From Shigella phage sb4, in sequence record PQ666542: 64,000 nt of DNA; one strand, 5' to 3'. Positions 22,964 through 27,076 of the stretch are shown here, in pieces. A model generated the notes under the pieces. It did not search any database and was not told the DNA's origin. It saw only the letters and a list, made by a program, of their open reading frames with translations. The position numbers were made by a program, and so were the translations under genes. How positions within the stretch are numbered: position 1 is the stretch's first letter; each line of letters opens with the position of its first letter.

Positions 22964-25015
22964 CTACATCTTGAACTTTTTAGACATTCCGTTGATGTTA
23001 ACCAAAGAAGCCAAGATTTGAGAAACTTCGTTTTCCTCTTCTTTTGATTCTTCTTCAAGGAATTGATTAAACCCAGCCATTGGACGAACTTCACCAGTTT
23101 CCATTAGATGGTCGCCATCATATACCGATTCTTCTAATTGTTCAGAATGAGGAACGATTGTGCCTTCGATTAGATACTTGTTATAAGCAGTTTCTTTCAT
23201 CATGTATGTACTCACTTTATTAATCTTCAGCAAAATTCCACGCGGTGGAATTACTTCAGCTTCTGATGGAAATCCTGATAAATGACCTGGAACGATAACT
23301 TTAATTCGCTCAGCTCCTTTTATTACCATGCCTACACTAGTTTCAGCATCTTAATTAGCATATGCATAATGACTACCCATATGCATTATATCTTCAGCAT
23401 CAACAGAACCTTCTCCTTCACCAGAAAATACTGCGCCGGAATCATCTAGAGCCATATAGTTTTTACCATGCTCACCGAAGAGATTTGGTTTAAGCGATGT
23501 TGATACGAAGTTCTTAAAATAGAACATTTTATTTTCAATATTATGACGTAAAGTTTTAAAAGTAACTTCTTGTCCACGATAAAGCGTAGTTCCTGGAGGA
23601 AGAACTGAACCTTTGGCAAAGGCAGAATCCATTGTCTCTATGTGTTTAATAGCTCGTTCCATGTATTCTTCACGGGTAGAATCTGGTTTACCCAAGAGGA
23701 ACGAGTTCATTTCAACATATGAATCTGCACAATAATCTTCAATTACATCAGACTCGGCCTGAGTTAATCCTTTTGGAGTTACTTCGGTGCTTGCGTATTC
23801 ATATGCCTGAGCAGCAGATTCATTAATCAATTTATAAATGCTATTCATGACAAATTGAATAATAGCTACCTTTTCGTCTGGTGTGGCTTTAGAACCTTTA
23901 ACTAAATCATTGATAATTTTCTTAATAACATCAAAGCTATTAGAAATATTAATGTCAGCGAGATCGCTTAAAATTTTATCAGTTTTATAATCAAAAAATT
24001 CTTTATTCTTTAAATATTATTGAGAACCTTGATGTGTTATATCGCTCTGCAGTCTGATAGACGGATCACGTAAACGTGCATGGGCCAATGCAATATGATT
24101 TCGGAAGCTTTCTAGTTCATAATCGTTAGATTTAAAACGAGAAGCACTTCTCATACCACCGATAGCTCCTTTGCTGAAGTTTGAACCAATCTGAATAACG
24201 CCAGAGTTCATTGGTCCTTCTGCTTTATATACCGGAACTTTAGATTCAAACTCTTGATATTTCTTAGCGGCGAAGCTATCACCCTGAAGTGAAGCATCGA
24301 CAGTAGAATATTGAGCTTGTGCTGCTAATCGACGACTAATTTTAGTTTTCTGAATAACAGCTTGATCCGTGCGCTTATCATTTTCTAAAGCAATAGAAGC
24401 AGCAACAGCTTTAGGAACAGCATTACCTGTTTTAACATCTACATAAACATCACCAACCTTTGATTCAACTTTTGTGAATAACTCAGTTGAAATAGGAGGT
24501 ACACCTGGAATGTCTTCTAAATTGGCGTTTTTACGGTAAACCATAATATATGCATACTTTTTATCGTAATCCCAGATTTCCTTTAAAAGAACATATCGAC
24601 CTGCTCCTTTAGTACGTACGAAACGGTCAGCAATAACTTGCATTTGACGAGCAGCGCCATTTGTTTTACTTTTTAGTACGCGGAATAGGCATGCGTCAAT
24701 TTTATACTGTTTCATTGTTTGAAGAGCAGTATCAAAAACCGCATTAATGACACCAATTGGATTTCCACCCAAGTTTTTAAGTTTAACTAATGATAGTTTC
24801 TCATTAACACCTATCATTACGATATGCATCATTTTATCGCCTGGCTTAACGTTTTTATTTGTATCACCGCCAGAAGTGTATGTACAAAATCTAAATCCAG
24901 GAAGCACACTTTCTTCGCCGGATTGAATAGCAAAAATTTGAGGTATTTTATGCTTAGGATTTAAGTTAACAACCGGCGCCGAAGCGCCGTCAAATAATTC
25001 TGTAATAAGTTCCAT
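22964..25015 (-). pseudogene. Alt-like ADP-ribosyltransferase paralog, interrupted by in-frame stops
   Basis: Three ORF pieces in one frame, 684 codons; stops at 24017-24019 and 23351-23353; ART motifs LYRGQ, FVSTSL, EAEVIPPRG. Confidence 0.65.
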
Positions 25016-25018
25016 GAT

Positions 25019-27076
25019 TTATCCTTGAACGAACTTGTAAGGCATGTTTGTAATATCTATGCAAGACGCAATAATTCCAAGAGATGATTCTACTTTTTGT
25101 TTAACATTTGATGAAACAAATGTTGCAAAGTCAACTCTGTCTTCTATTTCAATATCACCTGTCATTGCAACTACTTCACCAGTTTCCATTAGACGGTCAC
25201 CGTCATAAATTACTGATTCGGTGAGTTCTTCCGTAGTCATAACTTCAGCTTGAATAAGCTTGTTGTTAGTTTTAACTGTTCCATCATTGTAAGATGCGTC
25301 GGTTATTTTACTAACTTTGACCATTAATCCACGTGGCAAAATGACTTCCATTTCATTTGAATGCGCTAAACTTCCACCTGGTAAAACAACGTTGACTTTA
25401 TCAGCCCCAGTAATAACCCATCCAATTCCAACTAAATTATCGCTAGAATTAACAAGCCCTTCATCATTTTTATCGACAGAAATATTTAGACGCTTTTCGT
25501 CTGGTAGAACCCCTACAGCTGAATCAGTCATCCAAGTACCAAAAATGTTTGGATATAATGATGTTGATACAAAATTTCTAAAAAAAAAAACTCGATTTTT
25601 TACCATTGCTTCAGATATTGAAGGTAACATTCTCTGTGAACGATATAAAGTGATACCCTTTGGCAGTCGATCACCATTTTTAAAGGCTGAATCTAAATTA
25701 TCGATGGCTTGGTCTATTTCTGGTGCTGTTAAAATACTTGTACGTTCATCTAGATTATATAATCCCAAAAGAGCATTATCCATGTCTACATATCCTGAAC
25801 CTACGTATTCAGGAATTCCACGTTTTTGTGCCGGTGTGTACTTAGACGGATCTTTATTTTCGACTATAGAATGCAATGACCATCCAACGGTAAGAGCATA
25901 TCCACGTATTTCTCTTCGAATAATCTTTGTTTTTATTGCATTCCAAGAATTTTGTACTAACTCATTCGCAGCATCTTGATTTAAATGCGAATGATTGTTA
26001 ATATTTCTTTCTAACCAAGCACATTTATATTTTTCTAAATTATCATCGACTATAGAAGCAATAGTTTATAAAGTTTTTATTGAAGTAATATATTCTTTTC
26101 GTAATCTTTATAAAGATTTATTTTTTATTTATGTATTAACATCAGATTATTTATCTTCAGGAATTATAGAAGCTTCTCTGAATGCCATTCCAGCTGTAAC
26201 ACTATTAAGAGCATTCTCTAATGCAAATCCTGAAGTAGAAATAACAGTTAATTCATTAGCATCAGAAATTAAAGGCGCGTCAGCGGGTTTATTTAATTCT
26301 GCCGCTGACGCCTCAAATTTTTGAAACATTGGTGTTTCAAATCTGGAAGATTCTAACGATTGACTTTGTGCAATTGCTCTACGGGAAATTTTAACTTTAA
26401 CGATTACAGCTTGGTCAGAACGTTTATCATTTTCTTGTGCAATAGATGCTGCAATTGCCTCATTTTTAGTTACTTGAGCTCCGGTATCTTTATTGATATA
26501 TACATCGCCGACCTTCGATTCAACTTTAGTAAAGAGCTCGGTACTAATTTCCGGAACTCCTGGAATGTCTTCTAATGATACATTTTTGCGATGTTTAAGA
26601 ATATATGCATACTTTTTATCATAGTCCCAGAGTTCCTTAAGAAGGACGTATCTGCCACCTGAACGACTACGGATAAGTCTATCAGCAATAAGTTGAATTT
26701 GACGAGCTTGACCAGCAGTTTTAGACTTAAGAATACGGAGCATGCAGGCATCAATTTTATATTGACGCATTGTTTGCATTGCAACAGTAAAAACTGAATT
26801 GATATAATTAATTGGGCTTGGACCGAGACCTTTTAATTTAGCAATTGAACCTTTGGCAGTTAATGTAAAAGGAACAATATGCATCATTTAATCGCCCATC
26901 TTTAAATCGCGATTAGTATCACCTCCAGATGTGTAGGTACATAAACGAAAGCCTGGTTGTTCAATTGCGTCATCAACATGAACTGAAAAAATTTGCGGTA
27001 TTTTCTTCTTTGGATTTAAGTTTGTAATAGGAAGAGTAGTATCTTCGTCAAATAATTCTGTAATAAGTTCCATCAT
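25019..27076 (-). pseudogene. alt: ADP-ribosyltransferase Alt, interrupted by at least five in-frame TAA
   Basis: 686 codons in one frame; TAA at 26888-26890, 26147-26149 and about 26129, 26108, 26066; ART motifs LYRSQ, FVSTSL, EMEVILPRG. Confidence 0.75.

Follow-up and report, generated by a model that had tools for sequence, protein, structure and literature searches.

Bacteriophage T4 Alt is an arginine-modifying ADP-ribosyltransferase whose targets are host RNA polymerase alpha and further host proteins, and it loses a short propeptide at its MELITE N-terminus. Alt is a prohead-core protein present in about 40 copies, both of its ends are trimmed by the gp21 protease, and it is injected with the DNA (PMC9026906). 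Its modification of host proteins is NAD dependent (PMC9026906, PMC5512222). Unlike the C3-like/VIP2-like toxins, which are secreted, T4 Alt is delivered from the phage head (PMC9026906). T4 has a single full-length Alt (NP_049811, NAD--protein ADP-ribosyltransferase), as the initial annotation of the present sequence had it, and a note in the T4 GenBank record traces the small genes alt.-1 and alt.-2 to an old duplication that copied the beginning of alt. Duplication of alt is also mentioned in published descriptive notes (PMC1524935, PMC4177764). A second Alt-like RNA polymerase ADP-ribosyltransferase is found in Tequatrovirus phages 3 nt downstream of alt, with copies in pSs-1 (YP_009111014), T2, fPS-65, and Sf21. 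The window analyzed here, 64 kb of Shigella phage sb4 (PQ666542), contains both genes, and both are interrupted by stop codons.

The alt module in the window and in related phages

Two tandem, full-length alt-like ADP-ribosyltransferase (ART) genes had been described on the minus strand of the window, and translation of 22964-25015 and 25019-27076 confirmed them. The upstream gene, altA (25019-27073, minus strand), has 684 codons and a terminal TAA; the downstream gene, altB (22964-25015, minus strand), has 683 codons and a terminal TAG and begins 3 nt past the altA stop. The upstream frame had been opened at 27076 (685 codons), which includes one extra ATG (27076-27074). The T4-type start, corresponding to the MELITE N-terminus of T4 Alt, is at 27073. 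The altA ribosome-binding site (GAGAGG, 27079-27084, minus strand) precedes the ATG at 27073-27071 by 5 nt and the extra ATG by only 2 nt. Upstream, altA is adjoined by an intact alt.1 homolog (27126-27314, minus strand; 62 aa, 100% identity to pSs-1), and an intact alt.-3 homolog (22613-22903, minus strand; 96 aa) follows altB. The pair is located between gene 30/alt.1 and alt.-3/gene 54, in the same gene order as in T4 and pSs-1, and this is the usual alt module of the genus Tequatrovirus. The entire window is colinear with Shigella phage pSs-1 (96.7% identity, 26 indels), and identity in the alt region is 97.2%.

An exact match to the T4 late-promoter box, TATAAATA, is present on the minus strand at 27097-27104, 23 nt upstream of the altA start, and would drive altA. 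The window contains 21 matches to this box, where chance alone would give 8.8, and the match at 27097-27104 is the only one serving the alt pair; a scan of both strands found none belonging to altB and none between this box and 16327. Because altB follows altA by 3 nt and has no late-promoter box of its own, the two genes are most likely co-transcribed. A GC-rich hairpin (AAGGCC-TTCG-GGCCTT, 27111-27126, minus strand), read from the sequence, is directly 3' of the alt.1-homolog stop and ahead of the late promoter; the terminator scan missed it because its T-run is short. Beside the alt.-3 homolog are a strong sigma-70-like promoter (22963-22935; TTTACA-17-TATAAT, 11 of 12 matches, TG present) and a bidirectional terminator (22587-22608). 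The window also has a 220-aa plus-strand ORF (25317-25979) antisense to altA, which we regard as a by-product of the frame.

Both alt genes are intact and annotated as Alt-like in all 13 relatives compared (seven from GenBank and six further public contigs). At least 401 phage records, including T2, contain altB-specific DNA at a coverage of 80% or higher, and 772 sequences belong to the AltB-type protein cluster. The tandem Alt pair is already known and is carried by most T4-like coliphages. The novelty implied in the initial annotation does not stand, since hundreds of GenBank phages have both genes annotated and the duplication appears in the literature (PMC1524935; PMC4177764). Values of dN/dS among relatives (0.043 for altB, 0.070 for altA, and 0.044 for DNA ligase) indicate that both genes are under strong purifying selection.

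T4 is different at altB. A blastn comparison of T4 with the window shows that T4 is colinear on both flanks of an altB segment that it lacks (22984-24667, minus strand); the deletion is 1,684 bp, includes the whole ART domain, and is accompanied by a frameshift. By translation comparison, alt.-1 corresponds to altB residues 1-54, and alt.-2 to residues 62-116 followed by an out-of-frame run into the last altB bases. Both phrog_23015 and phrog_15247 match altB (E = 1e-39 and 3e-38). Because T4 is colinear on both sides of the missing segment, alt.-1 and alt.-2 are the remnant of altB, most of which the T4 laboratory lineage lost through this 1.68-kb deletion. It had been considered that the second copy might simply be alt.-1 and alt.-2 fused by annotation. 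The position is indeed the same, but the relation is the reverse: the small ORFs are leftovers of a full-length gene, which the window and most relatives carry.

Family features of AltA and AltB

With its five internal stops repaired, AltA has 93.8% protein identity with T4 Alt, and altA shares with the T4 gene its upstream neighbors (alt.1 and gene 30), late-promoter arrangement, and length. AltB, also after stop repair, has 98.4% protein identity with pSs-1 gp209 (YP_009111014), and altB is the second Alt gene of pSs-1, T2, fPS-65, and Sf21; compared with the pSs-1 type, the window copy carries two TAA codons of its own and has lost 6 nt in frame at about 24399, a deletion that is likewise private. 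AltA and AltB are 43-47% identical over their full length, the figure varying with the alignment method, and their similarity far exceeds chance; AltB shows the same 43-47% identity to Alt. On these comparisons, altA is the ortholog of T4 Alt and altB an old paralog.

Both proteins match PF03496 (ADPrib_exo_Tox) above the curated cut-off (AltA, E = 2.2e-29, about residues 374-614; AltB, E = 9e-19, about residues 414-619), and both match phrog_802 (E = 4e-256 and 4.5e-248, respectively). PF26846 (Tevenvirinae_ADPRT) is on record for both genes in six relatives and for nearly all homologs; the profile search returned no PF26846 match for altA or altB of the window. In a three-way alignment of altA, altB, and T4 Alt, residues R478, S503-T504-S505, and E574-x-E576 are invariant, the invariant columns cluster in residues 1-238, and MELITELFD is identical throughout. 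When 24 family members are aligned, the R, both S of S-T-S, and both E remain invariant, and the T is present in at least 90%. Of the shared ART motifs reported earlier, the third (given as E.EV[IL]PPRG) is in fact E-M-E-V-I-L-P-R-G in one protein and E-A-E-V-I-P-P-R-G in the second. AltB conserves the Alt N-terminal third, the MELITE N-terminus, a YDGDxLMETGE motif near the C-terminus, and the R / S-T-S / E-x-E core. Divergence from Alt is seen in the AltB middle region and in the loops that face the substrate.

Structural comparison used an AlphaFold model of an intact AltB-type homolog rather than the window copy (mean pLDDT 67; 74-90 in the ART region), and Foldseek matched this model to Vis, C3, CDTa, and VIP2 with probability 1.00. 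The C-terminal fold of the model is shared with the C3-like/VIP2-like R-S-E toxins (Vis, C3bot, CDTa, iota toxin, and VIP2) at target TM-scores of 0.6-0.7, and these toxins have the R, S-T-S, and E-x-E motifs in common with Alt proteins at a sequence identity of 15-20%. Among such ARTs, E-x-E is linked to arginine specificity. Unlike the toxins, Alt proteins have an N-terminal and middle extension of about 400 residues, part of which is PF26846. A sequence search of AltB against solved structures returned nothing at E ≤ 0.01. From the Pfam match and the model of the intact homolog, the second copy has an ART fold, as opposed to being a fusion product with no such fold.

Internal stop codons and the window-wide substitution layer

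At least five stops had been counted in the upstream gene and at least two in the downstream gene, and translation gives exactly five and two internal TAA codons. Four of those in altA form a cluster spanning 26066-26149 on the minus strand (26066-26068, 26108-26110, 26129-26131, and 26147-26149; all GAA>TAA), and the fifth is at 26888-26890 (minus strand, AAA>TAA). The two in altB are at 24017-24019 and 23351-23353 (minus strand, both GAA>TAA). Each of the seven is a private transversion of a single base (GAA>TAA in six, AAA>TAA in one); none of the 13 close relatives has an internal stop in either gene, so the uninterrupted frames absent in the window are present in 13 of 13. The patch holding the four-stop cluster has nine private substitutions within 127 nt. 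Window altA differs from T4 Alt in its five private TAA codons and in a non-synonymous divergence about twice that of relatives; raised dN in the window is common to ligase. An exact 62-mer containing three of the TAA codons had no match in IMG/VR viral contigs or GTDB genome contigs, and exact look-up of the stop-truncated altB N-terminal ORF and the alt.-3 homolog in a public gene index gave no record. The alt.1 product was found in that index and leads to intact relatives only.

The significance attached earlier to the interruption of both genes is removed by the rest of the window, where like stops occur at equal density in essential genes. Across the 64-kb window, 28 of the 88 genes contain in-frame stops, 50 in all (0.85 per kb), comprising 36 TAA, 9 TGA, and 5 TAG. 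Residues lost to these stops are E, K, L, S, G, C, W, Y, R, Q, and F, and relatives have Glu at 20 of the 50 positions. Affected genes include gp24, gp26, gp27, gp28, gp48, gp37, ligase, nrdA, td, and motA; the large genes gp34, gp23, gp20, and gp29 have none. For the alt pair, 7 stops compare with an expectation of 3.5 (P = 0.057), and for altA alone 5 compare with 1.8 (P = 0.03).

Compared with the 13 relatives, 62% of private substitutions in the window are transversions, versus 17-42% in the relatives' own private sets. Private transitions look selected (37 synonymous to 17 missense). Private transversions (12 synonymous, 48 missense, and 12 nonsense, where random placement expects 10, 52, and 6.5) behave as unselected. 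In the 10.7-kb region studied, nonsense changes number about double what random placement predicts (12 vs. 6.5, P ~0.03); this excess and that in altA mean that the changes are not uniformly random, and it is tentatively attributed to patchiness and to context preference (a plus-strand TTC>TTA change reads as GAA>TAA in a minus-strand gene). Changes favor isolated G/C in A/T-rich runs and occur in patches of 7-10 per 100 nt. The unselected layer amounts to about 0.6-0.7% of the window and is mainly G:C>T:A and A:T>T:A. Synonymous divergence of the window alt genes is ordinary, the abnormality being limited to the transversion layer, to which the altA TAA codons and raised non-synonymous divergence are attributed.

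The seven alt stops belong to this layer, which also breaks essential genes. Because the changes are private transversions that behave as unselected, we read the stops as sequence noise or non-viable mutation, not as pseudogenization or recoding. It is very probable that the window represents an ordinary Tequatrovirus Alt pair, with AltB as the putative second injected ART, overlaid by a window-wide unselected layer; the underlying phage almost certainly had both alt genes intact. The changes may have arisen by base-calling or assembly error, from a mutagenized or non-viable template, or by sequence editing.

A different reading takes the sequence as faithful and the DNA itself as non-viable or heavily mutagenized, from a mutator, an oxidatively damaged stock, or a single-molecule consensus. 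G:C>T:A, the classic 8-oxoguanine signature, dominates together with A:T>T:A, the spectrum shows no strand bias (C>A 145, G>T 139), and 26 indels in 64 kb are few, unlike typical long-read error. A molecule with about 50 nonsense changes over 64 kb, a good number of them in essential genes, could not be propagated as phage, however, and the preference for isolated G/C and the patches resemble a context-dependent calling or consensus problem more than random damage. We consider real damage of this kind improbable.

Decay of both alt genes into pseudogenes, with nonsense mutations building up in a function dispensable in the laboratory, is less probable again, and we hold it very unlikely. T4 Alt is listed as non-essential (PMC9026906), T4 itself is without most of altB, and the altA stops do exceed expectation. 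However, similar stops occur at similar density in the essential genes named above, and enrichment in the pair as a whole is not significant. The low dN/dS (0.04-0.07) and intact frames of relatives, together with the ordinary synonymous divergence of the window, also argue against it. Pseudogenization specific to this locus was rejected, as the stops are not confined to alt and ligase-like dN/dS gives no sign of relaxed selection.

T-even phages encode their own tRNA genes (the tRNA region is outside this window), and TAA makes up most of the internal stops, with Glu frequent at these positions in relatives; readthrough or reassignment by a suppressor tRNA or alternative code, leaving the genes functional as written, can nevertheless be dismissed as extremely improbable, since all three stop codons turn up inside genes, where no fewer than 11 kinds of amino acid are lost to them, the conserved ends of altA and many other genes are still marked by TAA, missense transversions show an equally abnormal excess that recoding would not produce, and the closest relatives (97% identity) have no internal stops.

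The window-wide layer is a warning for this window, where about 50 in-frame stops are spurious and interrupted genes are thus not readable as biology. The window adds nothing on AltB beyond what intact GenBank genomes provide.

AltB as a putative second injected ADP-ribosyltransferase

AltA would act as T4 Alt does, being packaged, trimmed by gp21, injected, and active on host proteins. AltB is most likely a second arginine-specific ART that is packaged and injected and acts on a different set of targets, because the Alt N-terminus, C-terminal motif, and catalytic core are kept and the middle region and loops have diverged. Divergence in the catalytic half makes a different target specificity plausible, as the initial annotation suggested. 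The complete proposal, that AltB is a capsid-packaged, injected, arginine-specific ART with targets unlike those of Alt, conserved in most Tequatrovirus including T2 and deleted in the T4 lineage, seems to us evenly balanced between right and wrong.

The literature searched contained no functional study of AltB covering packaging, processing, or enzymatic activity, because the model phage T4 carries only the deleted remnant (alt.-1/alt.-2); the paper on fPS-65 offers no virion data for Alt. A widespread and strongly conserved AltB poses a modest question for the gene family that is independent of this window. If AltB is a second injected ART, the T4 model would under-report the effectors that T-even phages inject.

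Structure and products of the tandem alt pair

The window, spanning tail-tube gene 19 through motA, is colinear over its entire length with the terminal 64 kb of pSs-1, a Shigella phage of the genus Tequatrovirus, at 96.7% identity and with only 26 indels. Window position 64000 aligns with base 164,999, at which the pSs-1 GenBank record ends. This implies that the source genome, like pSs-1, was opened at the conventional T4 start point and that the window represents the closing 64 kb of that genome. Gene order in the alt region (gene 54, alt.-3, altA, alt.1, gene 30) is the same as in T4, with altB lying between alt.-3 and altA.

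Both alt-like genes are on the minus strand. The reading frame of 25019-27076 (altA, the upstream gene) comprises 685 codons before its terminal TAA and is interrupted by TAA codons at 26888-90, 26147-49, 26129-31, 26108-10, and 26066-68. That of 22964-25015 (altB, the downstream gene) comprises 683 codons before a terminal TAG, and TAA codons interrupt it at 24017-19 and 23351-53. The initial annotation thus had the coordinates and stop counts right (five and two). For the upstream gene its frame and its end at 25019 hold, while the start moves from the ATG at 27076 to the second ATG at 27073, which is the T4-type start and lies five bases beyond a GAGAGG ribosome-binding site. Gene altB has an in-frame 6-nt deletion at 24399 that is private (absent from the relatives compared), giving 683 codons versus 685 in all relatives examined. 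A 220-aa plus-strand ORF (25317-25979) lying opposite the catalytic half of altA is assumed to be a by-product of the altA frame.

For protein comparisons, internal stops were first repaired with residues from relatives. Amino acid identity between repaired altA and T4 Alt was 93.8%. For repaired altB it was 47% with T4 Alt in a pairwise alignment and 98.4% with the corresponding pSs-1 protein. In a multiple alignment, altA and altB were 43% identical to each other. Pfam PF03496 (ADP-ribosyltransferase exoenzyme family) matches both (E 2e-29 for altA and 9e-19 for altB), as does phrog_802, “Alt-like RNA polymerase ADP-ribosyltransferase.” The proposal of two tandem Alt-type ADP-ribosyltransferase (ART) genes is thus borne out; T4 has only one full-length Alt, whereas the window and the 13 relatives examined have two. 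Alignment of altA, altB, and T4 Alt places most invariant residues at positions 1-238, including the N-terminal MELITELFD, and shows low conservation in the middle region. Catalytic residues R478, S503-T504-S505, and E574-x-E576 are retained, as is a YDGDxLMETGE motif close to the C-terminus. For an intact AltB-type homolog, an AlphaFold2 model built on a 24-sequence alignment had a mean pLDDT of 67, with 74-90 across most of the catalytic domain. Foldseek found its fold in common with the Vis, C3, CDTa, Certhrax, and VIP2 toxins (probability 1.00, target TM-scores ~0.6-0.7). An ART fold is thus present in the second copy, which is not simply the small T4 ORFs alt.-1 and alt.-2 fused by annotation.

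Origin of the internal stop codons

Nonsense codons had been listed as a feature of the alt pair. All seven are private to the window, and each results from one transversion (six GAA>TAA, one AAA>TAA). Using pSs-1 proteins as guides for 88 genes, we counted 50 in-frame stops (36 TAA, 9 TGA, 5 TAG) in 28 of them. Affected genes, many of them essential, include gp24 (8276), gp26 (16042), gp27 (17418, 18144), gp28 (18490, 18517), gp48 (21263), gp37 (57388, 58849), DNA ligase (27853, 27943), nrdA (five stops, 43373-43817), motA (63548), td, and uvsW. The alt pair contains 7 stops versus 3.5 expected by its share of susceptible sites (P = 0.057). The stops are not peculiar to alt and are not a biological feature of the pair.

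Transversions make up 62% (69/111) of the window’s private substitutions versus 13 relatives, compared to 17-42% in each relative’s own private set. Private transitions (37 synonymous : 17 missense) have the pattern of normal selected divergence. Private transversions are 12 synonymous : 48 missense : 12 nonsense, where random placement predicts ~10 : 52 : 6.5. Nonsense changes are about twice the random expectation (P about 0.03); the simplest explanation would be the sequence contexts favored by the transversions. These are chiefly C>A, G>T, A>T, and T>A with a strand-symmetric spectrum, and they favor isolated G/C within A/T-rich runs (TTC>TTA, TGA>TTA). Excess missense transversions (G:C>T:A, A:T>T:A) accompany the stops window-wide, and patches reach 7-10 transversions per 100 nt at 26066-26149 (containing four altA TAA codons), in nrdA (43373-43469), and in rnlB (9744-9798).

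Because a phage with so many broken essential genes cannot propagate, and because recoding is excluded by the three stop types, the many residues replaced (E, K, L, S, G, C, W, Y, R, Q, F), and the use of TAA as normal terminator, the stops are best read as unselected base changes superimposed on an otherwise ordinary Tequatrovirus genome. Such changes could stem from errors in base calling or assembly, from a template that was damaged or mutagenised, or from the sequence having been altered.

Other differences from pSs-1 were also observed. A 1-nt deletion at 36122 shifts the frame of the last ~20 codons of pseT (polynucleotide kinase), which tblastn splits at residue 282. The homolog of gene 67 (prohead core) has a 24-nt in-frame deletion at 3835, and its tblastn alignment covers only residues 1-50 of 85. 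Upstream of uvsW (12506-12525), three overlapping TATAAATA late-promoter boxes are spaced 6 nt apart, coinciding with a 6-nt insertion at 12504 that adds one extra 6-nt unit.

The T4 remnant and distribution of the second copy

Residues 1-54 of AltB correspond to T4 alt.-1 and residues 62-116 to alt.-2, which then continues into an out-of-frame tail (SKCSLQVPRVVL); the 3' end of altB in the window encodes this tail too. T4 DNA is colinear with both 22569-22983 and 24668-27140, and thus lacks the intervening 1,684 bp. PHROG families of alt.-1 and alt.-2 match AltB (1e-39 and 3e-38) much more strongly than AltA (1e-21 and 2e-19). Together, these sequence relationships indicate that alt.-1 and alt.-2 are a deleted, frameshifted remnant of full-length altB, which refines the T4 GenBank note describing them as “an old duplication of the first part of gene alt.”

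Both genes are intact (2055 and 2058 nt) in seven relatives from GenBank and six additional public contigs, and most copies in these 13 are annotated as Alt-like ADP-ribosyltransferase. DNA specific to altB (window 23100-24650) has at least 80% coverage in 401 phage records, including phage T2; T4-type phages have only a weak cross-match to alt. The 90% protein cluster of the AltB type contains 772 sequences. Published work has described alt duplications among T4-like phages (Nolan et al., 2006, PMC1524935; Jin et al., 2014, PMC4177764), and the tandem pair is therefore already known and common. Among seven relatives, dN/dS is 0.043 for altB, 0.070 for altA, and 0.044 for DNA ligase; both genes are thus functional and under strong purifying selection.

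In the homolog set, AltA-type proteins are ~41% identical to the AltB-type query, and AltB-type proteins 87% or more. Further full-length variants beyond these types are present (P0009, P0011-P0013); one variant has 73% identity with AltB, and another group, including Salmonella phage KM16, has 45-46%. This suggests that Tevenvirinae hold more than two Alt lineages.

Expression and proposed function

The alt pair is served by a single T4 late-promoter box, TATAAATA (27097-27104, minus strand), just downstream of a GC-rich hairpin that comes after alt.1. Gene altB begins 3 nt past the altA stop, so co-transcription from this promoter is the simplest reading. A near-consensus sigma-70-type promoter (TTTACA-17-TATAAT with TG; 22935-22963, minus strand) occurs right past the altB stop, before the alt.-3 homolog, and a bidirectional terminator with a 9-bp stem (22587-22608) lies between alt.-3 and gene 54.

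T4 Alt is a prohead-core component (~40 copies per head) whose short propeptides are removed from both termini by the gp21 protease, and it is ejected into the host, where RNA polymerase is among the proteins that it ADP-ribosylates (PMC9026906, PMC5512222). AltB has the N-terminal third and conserved C-terminal motif in common with Alt, and so would probably undergo the same packaging, processing, and injection.

Within the C3/VIP2-like toxin group, E-x-E is associated with arginine specificity. The stretch from S-T-S to E-x-E, including residues right before E-x-E, diverges strongly between the paralogs in the alignment (GGSLAHSNEMEV versus GHLSGFPSEAEV). Different substrates for Alt and AltB, as the initial annotation had raised, would be consistent with this. 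Our literature search did not find experimental work on the second Alt protein. The interest of this protein is independent of the window: a conserved second Alt present in most T-even phages and gone from T4 can be studied using intact public genomes.
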